Source of the DNA: Candidatus Methylomirabilis limnetica
Lineage (GTDB): Bacteria; Methylomirabilota; Methylomirabilia; Methylomirabilales; Methylomirabilaceae
DNA length: 32,000 nucleotides
Assembly: GCF_003044035.1 (NCBI RefSeq)
Contig: NZ_NVQC01000008.1
Location: 30,001 to 62,000 of the forward strand
Direction: 5' to 3'
Positions within the stretch are counted from its first letter, which is position 1, and each line of letters begins with the position of its first letter. This document shows positions 4,080-18,710 of this stretch, piece after piece. The position numbers and the translations under genes are program-made. Below the pieces are notes generated by a model. That model was not told the DNA's origin, searched no databases, and saw nothing but the letters and a program-made list of their open reading frames with translations.

Positions 4080-5573
4080 TTACCCGTCCCCTCCAGGCTC
4101 CTCTCCCTTGAGTCGCGTGAGAAGTAGCTCGCCCACCACCCGTGGGTTGGCCTTGCCGCGACTGGACTTCATCACCATGCCAACCAGGAAGGTGAGGCTT
4201 TGTACCTTCCCTTTGCGATAGTCGGCGACCGGTCCAGGGTGTTTGGCAAGCACCTCCTCAACAATCTGGAGTAGCTCGTCCTGGTTCGAGATCTGGGTCA
4301 GTCCCTGCTCTTTGACGATCAGTTCAGCCGACTTCCCGGTTTGATACATTTGTTCGAAGACAGTCTTGGCAATCTTACCGCTGATCGTCCCACTAAGAAG
4401 CAATGTGAGGAGTGCGGTCAGTTCCGCCGGCGGGATCGGACTATCGATAATCCCACGGCCATCCTTGTTCAAGAGGCCTAAGAGTTCCACCATTACCCAG
4501 TTACTGGCGAGTTTTGGCTCGTGGGAGGCCTGTGCGACCTCCTCGTAGTAGTCGGCAAGTGGCCTGGAGACGGTCAGGACCGCGGCATCGTAGTCCGGGA
4601 TCCCGTACTCCCGGGCAAACCGATCGCGGCGCTGCTGCGGTAGTTCGGGTAGAGTCGCGCGGATCTCGTCGATCCACTGCGATGAGATGACAAGCGGGAC
4701 CAGGTCCGGCTCGAGAAAGTAGCGATAGTCATGAGCGTGTTCCTTGCTTCGCATCGGCAAGGTCAGCTCCTGGTCGGCGTCCCACAACCGTGTCTCCTGG
4801 ACGATCCTTCCTCCTTCTTCGAGGATCCGGGTCTGTCGCTGGATCTCATAGGCTAAGGCCTTCTGGACGCCCTTGAAGGAGTTCATGTTCTTGACCTCAG
4901 CCTTGACCCCCAGCTCCTCCCTCCCAGTCAGGCGCAGCGAGACGTTGGCGTCGCAGCGCAGGCTGCCTTCATCCATATTGCCGTCGCAGACCTCCAGGTA
5001 CACGAGGATAGCCCGGAGCTGCCGGAGATATTCTCCGGCCTGTTCCGGGCTGCGGATGTCGGGTTCGCTGACGATCTCCATCAACGGCACGCCGCTGCGG
5101 TTAAAGTCCACCAAGCTGGAGTCGGCGACCTGCAACGTACCAGCATGCAGCAGCTTGCCGACGTCCTCTTCGAGATGGAGACGATGTATTCGGATGGATG
5201 TCAGCACGCCGCCAACCGGGAATGCGACCGTCCCACGTTGGGCCAGCGGAAGTTCGTACTGAGAGATCTGGTAGTTCTTCGGCATGTCTGGGTAGAAGTA
5301 ATTCTTCCGGTGGAAGCGGGACGATGGAGCGATGTCGCACCCGAGGGCAAGCGCGCTCTTGATGGCGAACTCCACCACCCGTTTGTTCAGGACCGGCAAA
5401 GCGCCAGGCATCCCCAGGCAGACCGGACAGGTATGGCTATTTGGCGGGGCGCCAAAGGCGGTGCTGCAGCCGCAGAAAATCTTTGACTTAGTCAGGAGCT
5501 GGGCATGCACCTCCAGCCCGATGACCGCCTCATACCTAGTTTTGAGTTTTGAGTTTTGAGTTTCGAGTTCCAT
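4080..5573 (-). CDS. gatB: Asp-tRNA(Asn)/Glu-tRNA(Gln) amidotransferase subunit B
   Basis: 497-aa ORF with canonical GatB sequence ([28 protein letters not shown], and a C-terminal YqeY-like tail with ANP). ATG 5573 is the only in-frame start and has AAGGA 8 nt upstream. Confidence 0.95.
5540..5567. repeat. Tandem heptanucleotide repeat (TTTTGAG x3 + TTTCGAG) inside codons 2-11 of gatB
   Basis: Read directly from the sequence: ttttgag ttttgag ttttgag tttcgag at 5540-5567. It encodes the non-conserved N-terminal extension [11 protein letters not shown]. Confidence 0.9.
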
Positions 5574-5594
5574 GTTTGGATTCCTTGTTACGTG

Positions 5595-5760
5595 GTAACT
5601 ACTCAGGTAGATAGACTGTAGGCTTTTAGACTGTAGGGACGCGCCCTGCGAGACAATACCAAGCTCAGAGCTTTTGAACTGGCCGACGAAGTGCCTTGAT
5701 TCGGTCCATGCGCAACGACTAACAGCCTTCAGCCTACAGCCTAAATACCTGAGTAGTTAC
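5595..5760 (+). mobile_element. MITE-like element derived from a four-helix-bundle (23S rRNA IVS protein) gene, copy A (166 bp)
   Basis: Perfect 15-bp terminal inverted repeats: GTAACTACTCAGGTA at 5595-5609 and TACCTGAGTAGTTAC at 5746-5760. These extend imperfectly to about 40 bp through GGCTGAAGG/GACTGTAGG-type subterminal repeats. The element is flanked by the direct repeat GTTACGTG (5587-5594 and 5761-5768). Positions 5643-5693 (+) encode [17 protein letters not shown], matching the two ends of the 62-aa ORF in copy B. Confidence 0.75.
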
Positions 5761-5761
5761 G

Positions 5762-6205
5762 TTACGTGAGAGGTCGGATTGACTCAAGAAAGTCAATGTA
5801 CACATCGGACAGCCCGTGTTCCTCGGCGCCGCTGATCAGCAACTGTTTATATCGTTTTGAGGGGGGTGTCTCGCGGTCCGGATTCCCCATGATGTAAGCA
5901 AACGCTGCGAGGGCCTTGCCCGAGTTGGTCCGTACCTGGATCTCCTTTCGGACATACAGACCGGGGTACCCTTCGTACTCATCCAACGCTTTTCGTTCCG
6001 CTTCACTAATCTCCCACACCACGCCTTCGACCTGTTTCCCTGGCTTCTCGCGGATGGTTGCTATCCCGCCACCCCACATCGGGGAGTTTCCGGAGAAGGT
6101 GAGATCATAGTCGGAGAGCACCGCCGAGGCTACAAACTTCGCCGTTGGGCAAAGCCGCTTGAGTTGGACCCGCTCCATGTTCGAGCCGTAGGCGAAGTAG
6201 AGCAT
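5762..6205 (-). CDS. Gamma-glutamylcyclotransferase (AIG2/GGCT-like) family protein
   Basis: The conserved domain begins at MLYFAYGSNM (ATG 6205), 2 nt after the upstream ORF stop, and includes EYEGYPGLY. The longer ORF-track start at 6346 would overlap the upstream gene and is Arg/Ser-rich. Confidence 0.8.
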   Translation of the reverse strand: MLYFAYGSNMERVQLKRLCPTAKFVASAVLSDYDLTFSGNSPMWGGGIATIREKPGKQVEGVVWEISEAERKALDEYEGYPGLYVRKEIQVRTNSGKALAAFAYIMGNPDRETPPSKRYKQLLISGAEEHGLSDVYIDFLESIRPLT

Positions 6206-6209
6206 CTGG

Positions 6210-6620
6210 CTAGCGGCTCCCAGAACGAGCCGGAACCCGCGTGTGCCAGATCGCGTGGGGCTCGAACTTCCATGAGGTTGCCGGACGGTGCTTCTCGGCG
6301 ATCTCGACCTCGAAGGATGCTTCCTGACCAGGATCGAGCGCCACAACTTTTGCCGCCTGCTGGCCCAACTCCTGCCGGGGGGCCGGCTTACTTTTTTGCG
6401 ACGGGGTCTGGCTCAGTGGTTGGCCAAAAAACCGGACGATGATGACGACATCTTCAGCCCGGGCGGCGCTGACGTTCTTGACCGTGCCCTTGAGGGTGTC
6501 GATCCAACGCTCCGAGTTCAAAACCACCAAGTCCTTATTCGCGGCCGAGGCTAGGGATGGTAGTAGGCTGAGCGCCAAGGTAAGCGCCATGGCGAGTCGT
6601 CTCACCGCTGATGCCACCAT
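6210..6620 (-). CDS. Hypothetical exported protein (signal peptide)
   Basis: ATG 6620 lies 1 nt after the gatA stop. The N-terminus MVASAVRRLAMALTLALSLLPSLASA-ANK looks like a Sec signal peptide. It is tightly packed between gatA and the GGCT gene. No family was recognised. Confidence 0.55.
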   Translation of the reverse strand: MVASAVRRLAMALTLALSLLPSLASAANKDLVVLNSERWIDTLKGTVKNVSAARAEDVVIIVRFFGQPLSQTPSQKSKPAPRQELGQQAAKVVALDPGQEASFEVEIAEKHRPATSWKFEPHAIWHTRVPARSGSR

Positions 6621-6621
6621 C

Positions 6622-8082
6622 TTACAATGGGGGTTTGCGGCGGTGCCAGTCGGTTGCCTGCTCATAGGCGTGCGCCACCTTCAGGATTGTCGCCTCGTCG
6701 AAGGGCTTGCCGATAAGCTGAAGCCCGATTGGCAGCCCGGCCTTGGTAAACCCGCATGGGATCGAGATGCCAGGCAGGCCTGCCAGGTTGACCGAGATCG
6801 TGAAGATATCCGAGAGGTACATCTGGAGCGGATCCTCGGTTTTCTCGCCAAACTTGAACGGCGGCGTCGGAGAGGTAGGGGTCGCGATCACGTCGCACTG
6901 CTCGAAGGCCCGCTCAAAGTCCCGCCGAATCAGCGTTCGGACCTTCTGGGCTTTAAGGTAATAGGCATCGTAGTAGCCGGCCGACAGCGCATAGGTTCCG
7001 AGCATGATCCGGCGCTTGACCTCCGGCCCAAAGCCCTCCCGACGGCTCCTCTGGTACATCTCCAGCAAGTCGGTCGGCCGCGTGGTCCTGTACCCGTATC
7101 TGACCCCGTCGTAGCGGCCCAGGTTGCTGCTGGCCTCAGCGGTCGCCACGATGTAGTAGGTCGCGATGGCATACGGCGTGTGAGGGAGTAAGACCTTTTC
7201 CTGCGTGGCCCCCAGATCCTTCAGCGTCCGGATTGCGGTCCAGATAGCCGCCTCGACCTCAGGGTCCATCCCCTCAATAAAATAGTCGTCGGGAATACCG
7301 ATGCGCACCCCTCGAACGTCTCCGGTGAGTGCGGACGAATAGTCTGGGACGGGAAGATTCGCCGAGGTCGAATCGCAGGGATCGTGTCCGGCGATCGCGT
7401 GCAGCAACATAGCGCAATCGTGAATATCCTTAGCAAAGGGTCCGATCTGGTCGAGTGATGAGGCGAAGGCCACCAGGCCGTATCGGGAGACCCGGCCATA
7501 GGTCGGCTTGAGACCCGCAATGCCGCAGAAACTCGCCGGCTGCCGGATCGAGCCACCGGTGTCGCTGCCGAGCGCGGCGGCGCACAGATCGGCCGCCACC
7601 GCGGCGGCAGAGCCGCCCGATGAACCACCGGGAACATGGTCGAGCGCCCAGGGATTCCGTGTCCGGAAGAATGACGAGTTCTCCGTCGAGGAGCCCATGG
7701 CGAACTCGTCCATGTTCGTCTTCCCCAGCAGGACTGCCTCTTGCGCTTTGAGGCGCCGGATGACCGTCGCATCGTACGGTGGCTCGTAGGATTCCAGCAT
7801 CTTCGATGCACAGGTGGTCCGTACCCCTTTCGTGCAGATGACATCTTTAATCGCCAGCGGGATGCCGGCCAACGGGGGGAGAGGAGTGCCCACGGCGAGC
7901 AGCCGATCGACGGTCCCGGCTTGCTCGAGGGCTCTTTCCTCAGTCAGGGTCGTGTACGCCGCGACCTGTCCATCGAGTCGCGTGATCCGATCGAGTACCG
8001 AGCGGACAAGCTCGGTTGCGCTCACTTCGCGCGTAGCGAGCATGGCCTGCATCTCGTGGATGGTAAGTTGAGTGAGGTCCAC
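6622..8082 (-). CDS. gatA: Asp-tRNA(Asn)/Glu-tRNA(Gln) amidotransferase subunit A
   Basis: Amidase signature ([23 protein letters not shown]). I place the start at GTG 8082, which has GGAGGAG 7 nt upstream and lies 4 nt after the gatC stop. This gives about 486 aa, typical for GatA. The ORF-track start at 8184 would overlap gatC by about 100 nt. Confidence 0.93.
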
Positions 8083-8086
8083 GGCG

Positions 8087-8377
8087 TTACTCCTCCAGGA
8101 TTCTCGGGACTCGGAAGAAGAGCTCATGTCGGTCGGGCGCATTGACCAGGACCTCTTCCTGAGCGAGCGAAGGCGTGACCTCATCCTCGCGAAAGACGTT
8201 GGTCATCGGCAGAACGTGAGAGGTCGGCTCGACAGCAGACGTGTCTAGCTCATTCAGCTTGTCGATGTAGATCAGGATCGAGTCTAGCTGAGCCTGCATC
8301 CGCTCCTTCTCCTCCGCGGTGAGCTCCAAACGGGCCAGCCTGGCCGCATGCTCGACCTCCTTCAGCGTGATCTTCAT
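8087..8377 (-). CDS. gatC: Asp-tRNA(Asn)/Glu-tRNA(Gln) amidotransferase subunit C
   Basis: 96-aa ORF with typical GatC sequence ([39 protein letters not shown]) directly upstream of gatA. Confidence 0.92.
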
Positions 8378-8562
8378 AGTACGTAACTACTCAGGTGTTT
8401 AGGCTGAAGGCTGAAGGCTGAAGGCTCTGAATTATCTCGCAAGGCATGAATCAAGCCGTTCAAGGCCTTCTCGGTTTCTATGACTTCCTGTTCAACCCGA
8501 TAAACCAATATTGCTACTTCATCAGCCAACTCAAATGCCCGAAGTTTTGTGTGATCACACAT
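8374..8562 (-). pseudogene. Internally deleted four-helix-bundle protein (23S rRNA intervening-sequence protein family) remnant, 62-aa ORF
   Basis: The N-terminal part ([19 protein letters not shown]) and C-terminal part (EKALNGLIHALRDN) resemble the first and last helices of the roughly 120-aa four-helix-bundle family, while the middle is missing. The ORF runs out through the terminal repeat. It has its own SD (tAGGGGtaatcATG), and its TGA overlaps the gatC ATG (ATGA). Confidence 0.6.
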
Positions 8563-8612
8563 GATTACCCCTAACAGCCTTCAGCCTTCAGTCTATCTAC
8601 CTGAGTAGTTAC
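8383..8612 (-). mobile_element. MITE-like element derived from a four-helix-bundle (23S rRNA IVS protein) gene, copy B (230 bp)
   Basis: TIRs are GTAACTACTCAGGTG at 8383-8397 and TACCTGAGTAGTTAC at 8598-8612. The inverted repeat extends to about 38 bp with 4 mismatches through GGCTGAA heptamer repeats. It is flanked by the direct repeat CATAGTAC (8375-8382 and 8613-8620), which contains the gatC start codon. Its orientation is opposite to copy A. Confidence 0.8.
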
Positions 8613-8661
8613 CATAGTACAAGTCCTCTCGCATTTAGTGTCGTGCGTGGCAAGCGGTCAT

Positions 8662-10881
8662 CTACGCCTGTAGCAATTGGGCATACTTGACCATGAGCTT
8701 CTTTTCACCGGCGCCATTGAACCTCACGACGACCTTCAAATCGTCCCCGCTGCCACTCCGTTCCCGGATCACCCCGATACCGAAATCGGGGTGCCGGATA
8801 CGGGCTCCGGGATACAGACGGTCGACAAAGGGCTCATCTTCTTGATGTTTATGTTGATGTTCATGAAAGGCAGGGGGCGGTGCGCCTCTGGATTCCCATG
8901 GATCTTGGACCTGGAGAACTTCGGGTGGGATTTCATCCAGGAACCGTGATGGCAGGTTAAACCCACTGTTTCCGTAGAGCCGTCGCTGTCGTGCCGACGC
9001 AAGGTAGAGCCGTCGCTTGGCCCTGGTCATGCCAACATAACAGAGCCGGCGTTCCTCCTCTAACTCCCGCTCGTCAGGCATGGCAAGGGCGTGCGGGAAG
9101 ATCCCTTCTTCCAGCCCGACCATAAAGACCGTTTCAAACTCGAGACCCTTGGCCGTATGGAGCGTCATGAGCGTGACCGCGCCACGGCCCTCAGTATACG
9201 CGTCGAGGTCACTAATCAGGGCGACGGAGTCGAGAAACGCCGGCAGCCCCCCTTCCGCGGTGCGCTCCACAAACTCTTGGGCGGCAGTAACGAGCTCTTT
9301 CAGGTTTTCCAGGCGGCTCTGGTCCTCCGGCGTTCCATCGCGCTGAAGCTCTTCAGCGTACCCGGAAGCGGTGATCAGCTCTGCGATCAGATCTGGAATC
9401 TGGGTGAAGGCGGATTTTGCCCTGACCTCTTCAATAAGGTGCAGCAATCCCTCCATGGCCGCCTGTTGCTTGACGTTGAACAGTCTCTCGCGTACGGCGC
9501 GTTGGCACGCTTCCCAGATCGTACTCTTGCCTTGCATGGCCAACAGTTCGAGCTTGGCGATCGTGGCCGGTCCGATTCCGCGCGCCGGCGCATTCACAAG
9601 CCGCTTGAAGCTGATGCTATCGGCGGGATTCACCACCCAGCGCAAATAGGCCAGGAGATCCTTGATCTCCTTCCGTTCATAGAAGCGGAGCCCACCCACA
9701 ATGACATACGGGATCAGGGCCTGACGCAGGGCCTCTTCCAGGACGCGAGACTGCGCGTTTGTCCGGTAGAAGATCGCGTAGTCGTCGTACCGCGTTGCGT
9801 CATTGGCCACCTGACCCTGGATCGTTCTGGCAGCGAAGAGGGCCTCATCGGTTTCATCGAGGGCCCGGTAGAGTACGATGGTGTCCCCGACCTCGTTTTC
9901 GGTCCATAAGGTCTTCCCCTTCCGATCGCTGTTGTGGGCCACCACAGCCCCCGCGCCCTGTAAGATCCGCTGCGTCGATCGATAGTTCTGTTCCAGCCGA
10001 ATCACCACGCAGCCCGGATGGTCCCGCTCGAAGTCCAGGATATTGTTCAGGTCTGCGCCGCGCCACCGATAGATCGACTGGTCGTCATCGCCTACCACAC
10101 AGAGATGCCCGTACTTGCCGGCCAGCATATGGATGAGGCGGTACTGGACGTGGTTGGTGTCCTGGTACTCGTCCACCAGGATGTAGCGCCAGAGGTCCTG
10201 ATAGGCAGCCAGCACTTCGTGGTGCCCCTCAAAGAGGCGCACCGTCGACATGAGGAGATCGTCGAAGTCGAGCGCCTGTAGCCCCTCCAACCGCTCCTGA
10301 TACATGATGTACAGCTTGGCGGTCCGCTCTTCCATATGGTCATTGGCCTGCAACGCATACTCCTCGGGGGAGAGGAGTTCGTTCTTCGCGCGGCTGATGC
10401 GGGAAAGGATTGCGCGAGGCTTGACCGCGCGATCGGATAAGCCCAACCCCCGCAGACAATCCCGCATCAGACTCATCTGATCGCCCTCGTCATAGATGAC
10501 GAAGGAACTCTTCAAGCCCAACGCCGCGCCATGTTTCCGCAGAATCCGAACGCAGGTGGAATGAAACGTTCCGACCCAGACGCTGCCGCCATCCCTTTGA
10601 CTACGTCCGTGGTAAGCCTGGTCTAACGACTCAGGGCGGTTTTGTTCCAGGAGGTCCGCCACTCGCCGCTTCATCTCGCCGGCCGCCTTGTTGGTAAACG
10701 TGACGGCCAGGATATTCCAGGGCGGAACCCCGCAGTGGCTGATCAGGTAGGCGACCCGTCTGGTGATGACCCTGGTCTTCCCTGATCCGGCCCCCGCCAG
10801 CACCAGAAGCGGCCCCTCGGTGTGCAGGACCGCCTCTTTCTGTCTGGGATTCAGGCCCTCCAAGATCGCGTGAGCTTTCAC
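8662..10881 (-). CDS. uvrD: ATP-dependent DNA helicase, UvrD/PcrA family (SF1)
   Basis: 739-aa ORF with a Walker A motif (AGAGSGKTRV), the DEYQDT motif, QNYRST, and TLHTAKGLEF/VGMTRA motifs. The GTG start at 10881 has GGAGGGA upstream. Confidence 0.93.
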   Translation of the reverse strand: MKAHAILEGLNPRQKEAVLHTEGPLLVLAGAGSGKTRVITRRVAYLISHCGVPPWNILAVTFTNKAAGEMKRRVADLLEQNRPESLDQAYHGRSQRDGGSVWVGTFHSTCVRILRKHGAALGLKSSFVIYDEGDQMSLMRDCLRGLGLSDRAVKPRAILSRISRAKNELLSPEEYALQANDHMEERTAKLYIMYQERLEGLQALDFDDLLMSTVRLFEGHHEVLAAYQDLWRYILVDEYQDTNHVQYRLIHMLAGKYGHLCVVGDDDQSIYRWRGADLNNILDFERDHPGCVVIRLEQNYRSTQRILQGAGAVVAHNSDRKGKTLWTENEVGDTIVLYRALDETDEALFAARTIQGQVANDATRYDDYAIFYRTNAQSRVLEEALRQALIPYVIVGGLRFYERKEIKDLLAYLRWVVNPADSISFKRLVNAPARGIGPATIAKLELLAMQGKSTIWEACQRAVRERLFNVKQQAAMEGLLHLIEEVRAKSAFTQIPDLIAELITASGYAEELQRDGTPEDQSRLENLKELVTAAQEFVERTAEGGLPAFLDSVALISDLDAYTEGRGAVTLMTLHTAKGLEFETVFMVGLEEGIFPHALAMPDERELEEERRLCYVGMTRAKRRLYLASARQRRLYGNSGFNLPSRFLDEIPPEVLQVQDPWESRGAPPPAFHEHQHKHQEDEPFVDRLYPGARIRHPDFGIGVIRERSGSGDDLKVVVRFNGAGEKKLMVKYAQLLQA

Positions 10882-12060: not shown

Positions 12061-12089
12061 TTGACATTCCATACTAGCAATCGTATAGT
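12061..12089 (+). promoter_or_regulatory. Near-consensus sigma70-type promoter (TTGACA-N17-TATAGT) upstream of the decahaem gene
   Basis: TTGACA at 12061-12066, a 17-nt spacer, and TATAGT at 12084-12089, about 65 nt upstream of ATG 12154. The same hexamers, spacing and following CC recur at 18534-18562. Confidence 0.5.
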
Positions 12090-12153
12090 CCCTCTACTGC
12101 TCGATTTCAGAGTCGCGTTTCCGTTTACGCTTGACACCTATAGGGGTTCAAAG

Positions 12154-13155
12154 ATGAAGAAGCGTGACACTGTGGCCGCTTTATTGCCCTTGCTATTTGT
12201 TGTTCTCCTTGTTGGATGGGCGTGCAGTCGATTTAGCCCGTCGCCCTCCGGAAAAGAAGCTCTCCCCGCGCAAGCCCCATCCGCCACGACCACCGTTGCC
12301 CCTCGACCTCAGTGGACCGGTCCACCGCCCGGCGCCAAGTATGTGGGGAGTGAGTCCTGCCTGACGTGCCATGAGGAGTCGAGCCAGCGCTTTCATAAGA
12401 CGATGATGGGGCGGATCATGTCCGTAAACCCGCGCACCCCCCAAGAGCAGCGGGTCTGTGAGTCGTGTCATGGCCCTGGGGGCCCTCACGTAGCTGCGGA
12501 GGGCGATGCCATTGAAACATTGATGACGTTCAAGAAGGGGGCAGAGCCGGTCGAGGCACAGAATGCCACGTGCGTGAACGGCTGCCATGAAAAGGGTGAG
12601 CACACTTCCTGGAAGGGGAGCACCCACGAGATGCGTGGCGTGGCCTGCGTGACCTGTCACAAGGTGATGGAGTCGGTGTCCGCCCGATACAACCTGGCGA
12701 AGCCGACCGCGATCGAGGTCTGCTCGCAGTGTCACCAGACCCGCCGGGCCCAGCTCCAGCGCAGTTCGCATATGCCGCTGCGCGAGGGGAAGATCAGTTG
12801 TAGCGACTGCCACAACGCGCATGGGACCGCCACCCAGGCGATGCTCAGGGAAGATTCGGTCAATGACAACTGTTACAAGTGCCATGCGGAGAAGCGGGGG
12901 CCGTTCCTCTGGGAACATGCGCCAGTCACAGAGAGCTGTACGAACTGCCACGAGCCGCACGGCTCCACAAATCCGAGACTCCTGAAGGTCAGGGTTCCCA
13001 GGCTCTGTCAGCAGTGTCATGTTGAGACCCGACACCCAACGAGCCCATACAATCCGACGACCGGAGCAAGGCAGGTCACCAACAGGGGCTGCAACAACTG
13101 CCACCAGAAGATCCATGGGTCAAACCATCCATCAGGATTCGCCTTCACGAACTGA
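12154..13155 (+). CDS. Periplasmic decahaem c-type cytochrome, DmsE/MtrA/PioA/MtoA family
   Basis: 333 aa from ATG 12154 (aGGGG upstream) with a signal or lipoprotein-like N-terminus. It has nine CxxCH motifs plus one CxxxCH (CVNGCH) in the third position. Family-typical blocks are present: KYVGSESCLTCHE, CESCHGPGGPHV, PFLWEHAPVTESCTNCHEPHGS and CNNCHQKIHGSNHPSG. Confidence 0.9.
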   Translation: MKKRDTVAALLPLLFVVLLVGWACSRFSPSPSGKEALPAQAPSATTTVAPRPQWTGPPPGAKYVGSESCLTCHEESSQRFHKTMMGRIMSVNPRTPQEQRVCESCHGPGGPHVAAEGDAIETLMTFKKGAEPVEAQNATCVNGCHEKGEHTSWKGSTHEMRGVACVTCHKVMESVSARYNLAKPTAIEVCSQCHQTRRAQLQRSSHMPLREGKISCSDCHNAHGTATQAMLREDSVNDNCYKCHAEKRGPFLWEHAPVTESCTNCHEPHGSTNPRLLKVRVPRLCQQCHVETRHPTSPYNPTTGARQVTNRGCNNCHQKIHGSNHPSGFAFTN

Positions 13156-13188
13156 GGTAGCGAACTGCATCAATCGGGGAGGTGGGCC

Positions 13189-15603
13189 ATGGGAGCGTTA
13201 ATCAGGATGAGATGGGTCAGCAAAGCACTACTGCCCGCCATAGCCCTGCTGCTGACGGTCGTCGCATCGGGTTACGCAGAACAGGCCCCGCCGGAGGAGG
13301 CTCTCCCGTCTTGGGCCAAATGGCTAAACGGTCGACTGCCATTCAACTTTGAGCTGACCGAGTTGGATATCGAGGGCGGTTATCGCGACATCGATGGCAG
13401 CCGGAGTTCGGCCAAGTTTCAGGAGTACCGCGTCCTTGAAGAGAGTCCCTTTATGGACCACCTTCGACTCTCCATGGAGACCAAAGATAAAAAGCACTAC
13501 ATCGACTTTACTACGCTAGACAGCTTCAAGCAGGACCAAAGCTACCTGTTTAGAGCAGGGCAGTACGGTGGCTATGAACTGGAGGTCTTCTGGGATCAGA
13601 TCCCCCATCTGCTGAGCACCACAGGACGAACACTCTTTACCACCACGCATGAGGATAGTACGGCGAGTCTAACCCTGCCGCCTGGTGTCGCATCGACGGT
13701 CCAGGCCGCTACCCCAGCCACAAGGGGCTCCGTGATGGCCGGCTTTCTGGTCAATGCCGCACCGACGGATCTCAGTTTCCTGACCACCAAAGCGGGATTC
13801 AAGATGAAGTACAACCTGACAGATTCACTGGATGTCGGTGTCCGCTATACCTTCACGCAGAAGGATGGGACGATTCCCTTTGGTACCGGTTTCGGTGGCC
13901 CGGGGAGCCTTATCGAGCTTCCGGCCCCCCTCTTTAACCGCACCCACCAGGTTGAGGCCAAGACCCAATATGCTCGGCCGGGTTGGAACGTTAGTCTTGG
14001 CGGCGCCGCATCGATCTTCGACCAGGGCATCGACAACATCACGTTCGACAACCCGCTCTCGGCAACGGACAGCCCGACCGTTGCCTCTCGCGGCCGGACC
14101 ACCATGGACCCGAACAACCAGGCGTATAACCTGTTTCTCTCTGGCGGCGTCTCCCTGCCGCTTCAGACCAGAGTCACGGGTAAGGTCTCCTACGGGTGGC
14201 GGCTCCAGACTCAGGATTTCGTCCCGCATACCATCAACCCCGCTTTGGCAGCCAATCCCCTATTGGCGCTCCCAAAACGCGATCTGGATGGAGATGTCCA
14301 AACAACCCTTGTGACGATCAACGGGACGAGTCGCCCGATTACCACTGTCCCGCTGACGCTATCCGGTGGCTACCGCTTTTATGACTTCAATAACCGATCA
14401 TCTGAGATCGAGTTCACTGCGCATACGGTCCGGGATACGTCGCTCACGGCCGAGACGCGGGCCAACGCGCCCTTCTCCTACACGAAGCAAAATGGTCGCC
14501 TGGACGCGGGTTATTCCCTCCTCAAGGACCTTCATCTCAATATGGGTTACGAGTGGGAGCGGTGGGACCGCGATCCGAAATACCGCGAGGTGCAGACCAG
14601 TGATGAGCACTTCTTAAAAACCAGCCTCGACTTTACGCCGATAGACTGGCTGCTCCTTAGAGGCGCCTATCGCCGGAGTTGGCGCAACATCGACAAGTAC
14701 GTGCCCCAGGCCCATCATGCGCATATCGTCACCGACATCGAGGGGGAGACAGATCCAGAGGTCCTGGAGCTCCAGGGTCAATCGACTCTGCTTCGGAAGT
14801 TTGACGAAGCCGACCGGACACGGGACAGGGTCGAGATTTTAGCGTCGATCACCCCGATCGAGACACTCAACTTTACGGCGACCTATGGCCTTATGCGGGA
14901 TGATTTTGACAAGTCCCCGCTCGGGCTGCAGGAATCGCGGGGATGGAGCCTGGGTGGCGATTTGGCCTATAGCCCTCGCCCGTGGCTTTCGTTCTTCGTG
15001 AACTACATGAGGGAGGAGTTTAAGTATGATCAGCTCTCTCGCTCCAGGCCGGTCGTCGGCAACGTATCTACGGCGACCGCTCTGGCGCCGGGGTGTGCGT
15101 TTACCTCCCCTTCCGCCGCAACCAGTAACGCGGTCTGTGACTTTACCGATTTTAATTGGAGGAGCATTAACAGAGATAGGGTAGACACCTATGGGGTAGG
15201 CGCCGACGTCAGCCTGATTCCCAACCGTCTCAACCTGCGGTTGAGCTACTCCTTTTCTGACGCCGACACGATCATCGATTCGTCCAACCCTGTCGCTCCG
15301 GAGCTCCACCCACCCACGACTGGGGCCACCCAGCGGGCTACGGCGACCGCCGTCCGGTATCCCCTGGCGAACACGAACCTGCACACCCTGATCGCCGCGC
15401 TTCGCTATAATATGACTAAGAACTGGAGCCTTAATGGCGAGTATCGATTTGAGCAGTTTCGGGAGACCGATTGGGCGACCGACGCGATTGGGACGTCTGG
15501 CCTAACGACCTTACCCCCGACGGCCGATACATATTTAGGCGCTCGGTTCCTCCAGAATTACAACGCCCATATTGCTGGTTTTACGCTTCGCTATAAGTTC
15601 TGA
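13189..15603 (+). CDS. Outer-membrane beta-barrel, MtrB/PioB (decahaem-associated porin) family
   Basis: 804-aa ORF starting 33 nt after the decahaem gene (GGGGAGGTG SD). It has a signal peptide (ALLPAIALLLTVVASGYA-EQ), alternating-polarity beta-strand character throughout, and a C-terminal FTLRYKF-stop typical of OMPs. Its size matches PioB/MtoB, and the gene order is MtrA then MtrB. Confidence 0.8.
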   Translation: MGALIRMRWVSKALLPAIALLLTVVASGYAEQAPPEEALPSWAKWLNGRLPFNFELTELDIEGGYRDIDGSRSSAKFQEYRVLEESPFMDHLRLSMETKDKKHYIDFTTLDSFKQDQSYLFRAGQYGGYELEVFWDQIPHLLSTTGRTLFTTTHEDSTASLTLPPGVASTVQAATPATRGSVMAGFLVNAAPTDLSFLTTKAGFKMKYNLTDSLDVGVRYTFTQKDGTIPFGTGFGGPGSLIELPAPLFNRTHQVEAKTQYARPGWNVSLGGAASIFDQGIDNITFDNPLSATDSPTVASRGRTTMDPNNQAYNLFLSGGVSLPLQTRVTGKVSYGWRLQTQDFVPHTINPALAANPLLALPKRDLDGDVQTTLVTINGTSRPITTVPLTLSGGYRFYDFNNRSSEIEFTAHTVRDTSLTAETRANAPFSYTKQNGRLDAGYSLLKDLHLNMGYEWERWDRDPKYREVQTSDEHFLKTSLDFTPIDWLLLRGAYRRSWRNIDKYVPQAHHAHIVTDIEGETDPEVLELQGQSTLLRKFDEADRTRDRVEILASITPIETLNFTATYGLMRDDFDKSPLGLQESRGWSLGGDLAYSPRPWLSFFVNYMREEFKYDQLSRSRPVVGNVSTATALAPGCAFTSPSAATSNAVCDFTDFNWRSINRDRVDTYGVGADVSLIPNRLNLRLSYSFSDADTIIDSSNPVAPELHPPTTGATQRATATAVRYPLANTNLHTLIAALRYNMTKNWSLNGEYRFEQFRETDWATDAIGTSGLTTLPPTADTYLGARFLQNYNAHIAGFTLRYKF

Positions 15604-15632
15604 CCTCTATATCGCGCGCAAAAGGAGTAGTG

Positions 15633-15671
15633 AAGCCAGCCTGTCGGGCGTCGTCTGACGAGCTGGCTTTT
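15633..15671 (+). terminator. Possible weak hairpin/attenuator between the porin and Rieske genes
   Basis: AAGCCAGC at 15633-15640 pairs with GCTGGCTT at 15662-15669 and is followed by TT. The loop is large (21 nt) and the T-tract is short, so this is not a strong intrinsic terminator. Confidence 0.25.
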
Positions 15672-15694
15672 GACGTTCAAGTCTGAAGGAGGGA

Positions 15695-16150
15695 ATGGTT
15701 GTGCCACAGCAAGATGAACAGGTCGATTATGGGCGGCGAACGGTGAATTGGCTTCTCGGGAGTTCCATCGGCGTGCTCTTCGTATCCATCCTTTACCCGG
15801 TTGTAAAATACCTGATTCCCCCAAAACTTGCCGAGCCGACTACGTTTAGCGTGACCCTTCCCTGGAAGCTTGCGGAGTTGAAGGCGAACTCGGGGCGGAT
15901 ATTTCGATTCAGGAGTCGACCTGGCCTCTTGGTGAAGACGTCGGCTGGTGAGTTAAAGGCCTTCTCAGCGGTCTGTAGCCACCTGGAATGCACGGTGCAA
16001 TACCGGGAAGAGCGGCAGGACATCTGGTGCGCCTGCCACAATGGCGTGTTCGACCTGAATGGAAAAAATATCAGCGGCCCGCCGCCTCGGCCCCTGGAGT
16101 CTTTGAAGTTGAACGTTCGTGGCGATCAGATCGTCGTTATGAAAGGGTAG
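15695..16150 (+). CDS. Rieske [2Fe-2S] subunit of a cytochrome bc/b6f-type complex
   Basis: 151 aa with an N-terminal TM helix. Rieske boxes are CSHLEC (box I) and CACHNGVF (box II). The start is either ATG 15695 or, with better spacing to GGAGG, GTG 15701. Confidence 0.9.
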
Positions 16151-16154
16151 CCAT

Positions 16155-17243
16155 GTGATGGGGGATCGGATCACGGCTTGGCTTGAAGAGCGAATCGACC
16201 TTTCGGCGCTCAAGCACCTCATCCAGAAAAAGGTCATCCCTGTCCATCGCCATACCGTCTGGTACTATGTCGGCGGGATGACGCTCTTTCTCTTCGGGAT
16301 CCAAGTGGCGACCGGGATCCTGCTGACCCTCTACTACCGGCCCAGCTCCGAGGAGGCATACGAGAGCGTTCAATTTATCGTGACCGAAGTCCAATTTGGC
16401 TGGCTCGTTCGGTCGATCCATAGCTGGTCAGCCAATCTGATGGTGTTGACAATGATGATCCACATGTTCAGCGTCTACCTAACTCAAGCCTACCGAAAAC
16501 CACGAGAGCTGACATGGGTGACCGGAATATTGCTTTTCGGCATTGTGCTTTTCTTCGGGTTCAGCGGGTATCTGCTACCATGGAATGTCCTCTCGTACTT
16601 CGCCACTAAAGTCGGGACCGAGGTCACTGGGCAGCTTCCGATTGTGGGTCATTTTCTGGTGCGGCTCCTCAGGGCTGGTGACGAGGTCTCGGGTGCGACG
16701 CTTTCCCGCTTTTTCGGCATCCACATTGCAATCCTGCCGGCGCTCACCACGCTGATACTCGCCCTCCACCTCCTCTTGGTCCAGAAGCAGGGGATGAGTG
16801 TTCCTGCAACCGTAGAGCGTGCCCAAGCGGGACAGCCGCTCAGGACCATGCCGTTTGTCCCCAATTTTCTGCTGCGAGACCTCTTCGGCTGGTTCGCCGC
16901 CCTTGGGCTCTTGGCCGCCCTGGCCGCTATGTACCCATGGGAGCTGGGACAAAAGGCCGATCCTTTCGCCCCCGCACCCGCTGGGATCCGACCGGAATGG
17001 TACTTTGTCTTCATGTTTCAGAGTTTGAAGTATATCCCGGCCAAGGTCGGTCCATTTGACGGTGAGGTCTTGGGGGTCCTGGGCTATAGTCTGGGCGGGC
17101 TGTTCCTTTTACTGGTCCCATTTCTGGACAAAAGGACAGCCCGGGGCGAGCCAAGCCCGCTCTTCCGATGGATCGGGATCGGTATCATCGCGTACATCGT
17201 GATACTCACCGCGCTTGGATATTTCGCGCCTGCCTTCAAATGA
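16155..17243 (+). CDS. Cytochrome b (fused b6-like N-terminal part + subunit IV-like C-terminal part)
   Basis: 362 aa starting 5 nt after the Rieske stop. The bis-His haem ligand pairs fall in helices B and D ([19 protein letters not shown] and [22 protein letters not shown]), and a PEWYF motif is present in the C-terminal part. Confidence 0.92.
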
Positions 17244-18666: not shown

Positions 18667-18710
18667 CAATAGACGCAATAGACGCGATGACGCAATAAAC
18701 GCAAGAGACA
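18667..18710 (+). repeat. Degenerate tandem 9-mer array (CAATAGACG x2, CGATGACG, CAATAAACG, CAAGAGACA) in the leader of the trihaem cytochrome gene
   Basis: Read directly from the sequence. The array ends about 33 nt upstream of ATG 18744. It is preceded by a 9-bp stem hairpin (CGAAAGCGG at 18624-18632 and CCGCTTTCG at 18655-18663). Confidence 0.8.

Follow-up and report, generated by a model that had tools for sequence, protein, structure and literature searches.

How genes for four-helix-bundle proteins and the intervening sequences (IVSs) of ribosomal RNA (rRNA) have spread is a question that has stood since the early 1990s, and the hypotheses quoted for rRNA IVSs include a 'remnant of transposition' and a 'mobile element whose ORF aids mobility' (ORF, open reading frame) (PMC4990558). 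The question is raised again by a 32-kb stretch of the Candidatus Methylomirabilis limnetica genome (contig NZ_NVQC01000008.1; the window hereafter), in which two short repeats with remnants of a four-helix-bundle gene, elements A and B, lie between genes of the gatCAB operon. We report that A and B are recently inserted non-autonomous transposons, and that their end sequences and 8-bp duplication match what is seen in the ISBst12 group, within the IS66 family of insertion sequences (ISs). Both are likely to be derivatives of a ~440-bp four-helix-bundle cassette moved in trans by an ISBst12-type DDE transposase. For one large subfamily of these genes this offers a concrete, testable route of spread through IS66/ISBst12-type ends, 8-bp duplications, empty sites and dispersal across phyla.

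The terminal motif GTAACTACTCAGGT has exactly four matches in the window (5595 and 8383 on the plus strand, 5760 and 8612 on the minus strand), which form two inverted pairs and agree with the shared termini of the original prediction; the chance expectation in the window is 0.06, and four matches were reached in 0/100 shuffles. Element A (5595-5760; 166 bp, remnant coding sense on the plus strand) is a non-autonomous miniature inverted-repeat transposable element (hereafter, MITE) without an intact ORF. Its left terminal inverted repeat (5595-5609, plus; GTAACTACTCAGGTA) is paired with a right repeat at 5746-5760 (minus), and between the two repeats lie subterminal tandem heptamers (5722-5743; ACAGCCT x3.1) and a partner array of the GACTGTAGG type at about 5612-5638. 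Element B (8383-8612, minus; 230 bp) is an internally deleted cassette whose remnant ORF is co-directional with gatC. It has a gatC-proximal terminal repeat at 8383-8396 (plus), a uvrD-proximal one at 8599-8612 (minus), tandem heptamers at 8401-8426 (AGGCTGA x3.7) and inverted partner heptamers at 8575-8591 (CAGCCTT x2.4). Perfect terminal repeats of 15 bp had been predicted for both copies; A has 15 nt and B has 14, because the arms of B differ at position 15, with G in one and A in the other. An extension of the inverted repeat to about 40 bp, likewise predicted, was found as 30 nt at 90% identity in A and 38 nt at 89% in B, carried in each by tandem heptamers of the GGCTGAA/GACTGTA type. 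A read on the plus strand aligns with B read on the minus strand, the remnants of the same ORF lying in opposite orientations, and the only ORF in the two elements is a 62-amino-acid (aa) remnant in B. Folded as RNA, A reaches -81 kcal/mol (z -8.2) and B -96.7 kcal/mol (z -6.8), with predicted terminal stems of about 40 bp. An Rfam scan of 5400-8800 at E<=1 returned no family and no rRNA, and a promoter and terminator scan gave no signal within elements A or B.

Both elements are bounded by exact 8-bp direct repeats. The copies flanking A (5587-5594 and 5761-5768) read GTTACGTG, the right one including the TAA stop (5762-5764) of a GGACT-family gene. Those flanking B read CATAGTAC (GTACTATG on the coding strand); the proximal copy (8375-8382) includes the gatC start codon and the distal copy (8613-8620) holds a duplicated ATG beside the original gatC Shine-Dalgarno sequence. 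Alleles that lack the elements were found for both sites. A contig of another sample that encodes an identical GatC (L008) reads gagaggacttGTACTATGaagatcacg at the B site, with a single GTACTATG, no element and one single-nucleotide polymorphism in the flank shown relative to the window, where the occupied site reads gagaggacttGTACTATG, the 230-bp element and GTACTATGaagatcacg. At the A site, a contig with an identical GGACT protein (L138) reads ctctGACGTAGCaaggaattggaacATG with one copy of GACGTAGC, compared with ctctCACGTAAC, the 166-bp element and CACGTAACaaggaatccaaacATG in the window. Two more NC10 genomes, GCA_028716865.1 and GCA_028864815.1 (L236 and L237), preserve the order uvrD-gatC-gatA-orf-GGACT-gatB and are empty at both sites. 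They have a 45-bp uvrD-gatC spacer without the element and with a single 8-mer at the B site; the element-free A site of L237 likewise has one copy of the 8-mer, and one of the two genomes has a 14-bp GGACT-gatB spacer. Since the same sites are empty, with a single 8-mer, in related strains and species, A and B are true insertions, and the flanking 8-mers are target-site duplications, as had been proposed, that lie outside the element proper. Several short contigs stop inside the elements, as expected because repeats break assemblies.

To establish how far the family extends, species-representative genomes were scanned with a 24-nt end pattern, GTAACTACTCAGGTNNNTAGNCTG, which returned at least 120 stretches; the counts that follow hold among the matches listed. 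The stretches came from 67 assemblies, metagenome-assembled genomes of many phyla, including Nitrospirota, Desulfobacterota ('Deltaproteobacteria'), Methylomirabilis, anammox Planctomycetota, Bacteroidales, Elusimicrobia, Nitrospinota, Desantisbacteria, Geobacter and others. Inverted end pairs numbered 54 and spanned 86-551 bp, mainly 145-195 bp. Where flanks were readable, 24 of 53 pairs had perfect 8-bp direct repeats and a further 8 of 53 had repeats with one mismatch, the sequence of the duplication differing at every site and being AT-rich as a rule. Many seemingly single ends pair with a variant end, GTGACTACTCACGT, ~172 bp away, also with perfect 8-mers. Viral contigs searched with the 24-nt pattern gave 0 matches, and a plasmid collection searched by blastn with a full-length element gave none. 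The checks proposed with the original prediction, a count of further genomic copies, a tabulation of their flanking 8-mers and searches for full-length members and empty orthologous sites, all turned out in its favour, and nothing that had been named as refuting it was seen.

Full-length members reveal the parent cassette. In a Brocadiaceae genome (L059:152-594), a 443-bp element has a 127-aa ORF that is bordered on each side by heptamers and, beyond them, by a terminal repeat, and a full-length element from Nitrospira (L061) contains a 118-aa ORF. The L059 ORF matches TIGR02436 'four helix bundle protein' (E 2.4e-31; 108 bits against a cut-off of 24) and PF05635 '23S rRNA-intervening sequence protein' (E 7.5e-31), and the full-length ORF matches the solved pentameric protein XCC0516 (PDB 2gsc, E 2.6e-20). 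Such full-length relatives encode one intact four-helix-bundle protein and no transposase. In a 483-bp copy with a perfect duplication, TTAAATTC (L088:6009-6491), the four-helix-bundle ORF is broken by a short nested hairpin of the same heptamer kind (GGCTGAAGACTGAAGACTG...CAGCCTTCGGTCTTCAGCC).

Positions 1-118 of B (minus) are 94% identical to positions 1-119 of the L061 element, while 132-154 and 190-220 match L061 355-377 and 428-458, so that ~235 bp of the middle have been deleted in B. BLASTP of the 62-aa ORF likewise joins residues 1-23 to residues 95-116 of the full-length protein, and the remnant alone has no Pfam or NCBIfam match. By these alignments B is an internal deletion of the full-length cassette, which upholds for B the earlier view of both copies as internally deleted cassettes. 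By BLAST, A has only its ends in common with a full-length copy; it is not a simple deletion of B, because its ALRDN-coding 15-mer lies upstream of the 11-residue-coding segment common to the two elements. In another species of the genus, Ca. Methylomirabilis sp. bin48, three further loci (L053, L099 and L116) have copies of the A type that are 93% identical over their full length, and the ORF-less derivative has therefore itself multiplied.

Since the ends start with GTAA and the duplication is 8 bp, the IS66 family was tested as a lead. No other IS family in the ISfinder table is known to start with GTAA. ISDge4, of the ISBst12 group, encodes one 449-aa transposase, is bounded by the terminal repeats GTGACTACTCAGCA and GTAACTGCTCAGCA and makes an 8-bp direct repeat; it has been observed experimentally to transpose in Deinococcus geothermalis (PMC12898284). 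On the Geobacillus plasmid pHTA426 an IS66-type transposase (DDE_Tnp_IS66 E 1.9e-64, plus zf-IS66 and DUF6444) lies between ends GTATCTATTCAGCC and GTAACTATTCAGCC with an 8-bp repeat, GACGAGTT. An alignment of 25 relatives of this transposase led to 80 metagenomic loci, 58 of which have inverted termini with <=2 mismatches from GTAACTACTCAG around the gene, a median of 1575 bp apart. The consensus of 116 of these ISBst12-type ends is GTAACTACTCAGGC, and perfect 8-bp flanking repeats were found at 9 loci. One IS (L182:2351-3852) has the exact 14-nt GTAACTACTCAGGT at both ends and an 8-bp repeat, AGCAACTT, and the right end of another (L203) is GTAACTACTCAGGTGAGTAGGCTGTAAGCTGTAGGCTGATAGG, in which the same terminal repeat is followed by GGCTGTA-type heptamers as in the MITE ends. 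L203 (111-2687) is a 2.6-kb IS in which a DruA-like protein (PF14236, E 7e-35) is encoded upstream of the IS66/ISBst12-type transposase; its MITE-like heptamers are at the right end only.

Of the 14 terminal bases, 12-14 are common to the elements, ISDge4, the pHTA426 element and the consensus of the 116 ends, and the group's end consensus GTAACTACTCAG, its GTAA start and its 8-bp direct repeat are all present in the elements described here. Like ISDge4, ISBst12 and the pHTA426 element, they have termini of the form GT(A/G)ACT(A/G)(C/T)TCAG, an 8-bp direct repeat and varied insertion sites. They differ in having no DDE_Tnp_IS66 gene, in being 166-443 bp long as opposed to about 1.5-1.6 kb, and in their subterminal heptamers, seen among the ISs examined only in L203. 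A DDE_Tnp_IS66 ORF (PF03050, zf-IS66, DUF6444) was absent from A, B, the full-length cassettes and their flanks; having IS66-type ends and no such ORF, the elements are derivatives or satellites of the ISBst12 group and not members of it. Literature searches, mostly of open-access coverage, returned no description of these cassettes as transposons, and the match to ISBst12/IS66-type ends is a new result that supplies a candidate mechanism.

The mechanism that we consider likely starts from an ancestral cassette of ~440 bp that would have comprised a 14-nt terminal repeat, a few tandem heptamers, the four-helix-bundle gene (TIGR02436/PF05635), inverted heptamers and the second terminal repeat, and would itself have had no transposase gene. 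Its terminal repeat (GTAACTACTCAGG...) and the 8-bp staggered cut of the target are those of the ISBst12 group, so that the single-ORF DDE transposase of that group, supplied in trans, most likely acts on it. Such an enzyme, present in this lineage now or in the past, would bind the ends and insert the element into AT-richer intergenic 8-mers, and internal deletions would then give rise to MITEs that are still mobile, the A type among them. Most simply, the cassettes can be read as satellites that ISBst12-type ISs move in trans.

Several observations weigh against this mechanism. A tblastn search with the ISBst12-type transposase found no match in the 32-kb window and ~130 flanking loci. The closest named relatives of the exact-end IS L182 belong to the Ktedonobacteraceae, outside the carrier phyla, and L182 therefore demonstrates no co-occurrence with the elements. 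Heptamer arrays are absent from most ISBst12-type ends, and many of the IS loci lie on short metagenome contigs without matching flanks. More distant four-helix-bundle genes have heptamer arrays and lack IS66-type termini, and the cassette may therefore have a second way of spreading.

Other searches for a transposase were also made. Clustering of recurrent ORFs of >=300 aa over 120 flanking loci yielded host gene families only and no transposase. None was found beside the seemingly single ends, which are copies with a decayed or variant second end. Nor was one found inside the longest end pairs: the inverted element ends of L062:2783-6271, 3.5 kb apart and lacking a flanking duplication, enclose housekeeping and PIN genes (PIN-toxin, cytochrome-b-like and HD-domain genes). 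The locus may be a composite, or may have arisen from two copies by inversion or recombination.

Three other explanations of A and B were weighed. That they are immobile, conserved structured sequences with a regulatory or processing role in the operon, of the repetitive extragenic palindromic (REP) or attenuator type, their 8-mers being due to chance or part of the element, would suit the very stable predicted hairpins and the position of both at gene boundaries inside one operon. It is refuted by the single-8-mer empty sites in near-identical and related genomes and conflicts with flanking 8-mers that differ at every locus, with copies at unrelated loci in many phyla and with the lack of an Rfam match, and we give it next to no credence. 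Mobilization by a transposase of another family that makes 8-bp duplications (IS1595, ISL3, IS6 or IS256), with a convergent likeness to ISBst12 ends, draws on the failure to find a partner transposase near the elements in the carrier genomes, in the window and flanking loci. We judge it very improbable given the number of terminal bases common to ISDge4, the pHTA426 element and the 116-end consensus and the existence of an IS, L182, with identical 14-nt ends.

The third explanation, that the cassette is autonomous in an unconventional way, its four-helix-bundle protein, a relative of Avd, being the mobility factor or an essential co-factor and the truncated copies being moved by the protein of full-length ones, has a precedent in the idea of Ralph and McClelland of an IVS ORF that aids mobility, a hypothesis stated in PMC4990558. 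In its favour, the ORF appears to be under purifying selection: dN/dS (the ratio of non-synonymous to synonymous substitution) is 0.14 for L059 against L221, and dN is 0 with dS 0.07 for L224 against L226, values that come from a small sample of few pairs with unsaturated synonymous sites and that argue for selection on the protein, and hence keep the idea alive that the protein serves the element. The ORF is also intact in full-length copies with decayed terminal repeats in operon spacers. Heptamer arrays surround distant members without IS66-type ends, and the subfamily is a very large, conserved one, in which at least 7985 clusters (90% identity) match at E<=1e-5 and all of the best 120 are >=75% identical. 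A helical bundle of 120 aa with no nuclease or recombinase signature is, however, not enough to explain why the terminal repeats are precise and the 8-bp duplication is fixed, both of which IS66-type ends fully account for, and the window contains no full-length copy; we therefore regard autonomy of this kind as unlikely, and transposition in trans by an ISBst12-type enzyme remains the reading that we prefer.

Some full-length four-helix-bundle genes are fixed in operons at the same site in several samples (L221:1117-1680 and L224:1150-1600), one such site being between genes for a histidine kinase and a sigma-54 response regulator and the other between those for 2-oxoacid oxidoreductase subunits.

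The wider protein family presents a different picture at its termini. On plasmids of cyanobacteria and of Gemmatirosa, distant four-helix-bundle genes (30-45% identity) are flanked by inverted tandem heptamer or octamer arrays (AGCTTTT, TCAGGAG, GGAGATAA and GGGCAGGA). The notion that IS66-type ends are general to the whole protein family was rejected, since these distant plasmid members lack GTAACTACTCAG termini and have inverted heptamer arrays only. Two of the distant genes lie inside CRISPR-cas operons, on Pseudanabaena pPg_01 (L230) and on a Picosynechococcus plasmid (L234), the sites being between cas6 and cas4 and between cas10 and cmr3, with inverted heptamers and without IS66-type ends. 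As the distant genes and the Coxiella IVS also have heptamers, heptamer arrays are a family-wide trait, and IS66-type ends define the subfamily found here. A broader and rather doubtful possibility is that the four-helix-bundle gene is not passive cargo, and that cassettes of this gene with inverted heptamers are an old, widespread selfish module, represented by the IVSs of rRNA and also present within cas operons and many spacers of operons, of which the present subfamily hitch-hiked onto ISBst12-type ends. The protein would then have as its target either the hairpin nucleic acid of its element or the transposase, just as Avd works with the reverse transcriptase of diversity-generating retroelements (DGRs). 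If true, this would explain how ORF-bearing 23S rRNA IVSs entered rRNA genes.

In kind, the elements remain members of the MITE/cassette family with an unusual conserved passenger. They resemble MITEs in being <500 bp long, without a transposase gene, with terminal inverted repeats and a duplication of fixed length (8 bp) checked at empty sites, with copies at unrelated loci, and with ends common to an autonomous IS group whose members were seen in metagenomes (L182 and L203). They depart from MITEs and from mobile insertion cassettes (MICs) in that a conserved four-helix-bundle gene with inverted heptamer arrays, and no deleted transposase gene, lies between the ends, and in that the same element occurs in many phyla, its DNA being up to 94% identical over part of the length. 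As in MICs, an intact passenger gene lies between IS-type ends in the relatives L059 (443 bp) and L088 (with its perfect duplication), whereas the window contains truncated remnants only.

Comparison with ORF-bearing 23S rRNA IVSs, such as those of Coxiella and Leptospira, reveals a similar architecture. The Coxiella burnetii IVS is 428-444 nt long with a 28-bp terminal stem and three GACAGAT heptamers before an S23p ORF, and is excised by RNase III (PMC4990558). The 443-bp element falls in this size class and also has a long terminal inverted-repeat stem and an S23p/PF05635 ORF, and in the Coxiella IVS, too, tandem heptamers stand just upstream of the ORF. The 23S rRNA IVSs lie in helix 9, 25 or 45, whereas A and B lie between protein-coding genes of the gatCAB operon. 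The likeness rests on architecture, GTAACTAC-type ends and 8-bp duplications being known from the elements described here, and RNase III cleavage, shown for Coxiella, would apply to them by analogy. The present elements nevertheless have a testable bearing on the origin of ORF-bearing rRNA IVSs. With Avd of DGRs the full-length ORF has its fold class in common and makes a weak profile match (NF033474, E 3.7e-6; PF22296 bAvd, E 1.8e-4), its scores falling far short of the family cut-offs (for NF033474, 27 bits as against 80). No reverse transcriptase was found in the flanks, and no template or variable repeats are associated with the element.

We also considered what the insertions have done to the operon. 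B was inserted between the ribosome-binding site and the start codon of gatC, and comparison with the empty sites places the original Shine-Dalgarno sequence (GAGAGGA) at 8624-8630 (minus), now parted from gatC by the element. The insertion has created a 14-codon upstream ORF (8571-8615, minus; ATGGTAACTACTCAGGTAGATAGACTGAAGGCTGAAGGCTGTTAG) that starts at the duplicated ATG behind the original gatC ribosome-binding site. The 62-aa remnant ORF (8374-8562, minus), in which the N-terminal 23 aa of the four-helix-bundle protein are fused to its C-terminal ~22 aa, comes with an AGGGG site of its own, and its reading frame continues across the heptamers and the terminal repeat to a TGA that overlaps the gatC ATG (ATGA). 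This arrangement suggests that gatC is now probably translated by coupling to the remnant ORF, which would make the locus a natural example in which an essential gene was separated from its ribosome-binding site by an insertion and apparently rescued by translational coupling. A sits with the stop of the GGACT gene, itself part of the duplication, on one side and the ribosome-binding site of gatB on the other. In the gatCAB transcript the ~40-bp stems of the two elements could, by analogy, serve as RNase III or stability sites. The elements further provide a defined end pair for testing with an ISBst12-type transposase, and a means for annotators to recognise repeats that also break metagenome assemblies.

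The host genes agree with the source of the window, its UvrD, GatB and GatC being identical to PTL37092.1, PTL37087.1 and PTL37091.1 of Ca. Methylomirabilis limnetica, of the NC10 phylum. On the minus strand the gene order is uvrD, gatC, gatA, a 151-aa ORF, a GGACT/AIG2-like gene and gatB. The string begins with uvrD (8662-10881), and element B occupies the spacer between it and gatC (8087-8377; Pfam GatC), the host gene directly downstream. gatA (6622-8082) is followed by the 151-aa ORF (6210-6665), which is without a Pfam match, has 44 bp in common with the 3' end of gatA and is kept as a 151-aa or 126-aa gene in related contigs. The GGACT/AIG2-like gene (5762-6205) lies directly upstream of element A, which fills the spacer to gatB (4080-5573; Pfam GatB_N and GatB_Yqey), directly downstream.

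The first 12 codons of gatB consist of a tandem heptamer array of their own (5538-5569; AGTTTTG x4.6 on the plus strand, GAAACTC/AAAACTC on the coding strand), 14 bp from the duplication of element A. The array differs by lineage, being GAAACCC/GAAACTC in L138 and ACCCAAT x2 in L237, and it may have been left by one arm of an older cassette with heptamer flanks, or may represent an N-terminal extension that is hypervariable. Elsewhere in the window, genes for a multihaem cytochrome (Paired_CXXCH), an MtrB/PioB-type outer-membrane porin, and Rieske and cytochrome b proteins stand side by side at 12061-17243, an extracellular-electron-transfer-like cluster in a Methylomirabilis genome, and a tandem 9-mer array, CAATAGACG x4.9, is found at 18667-18709.

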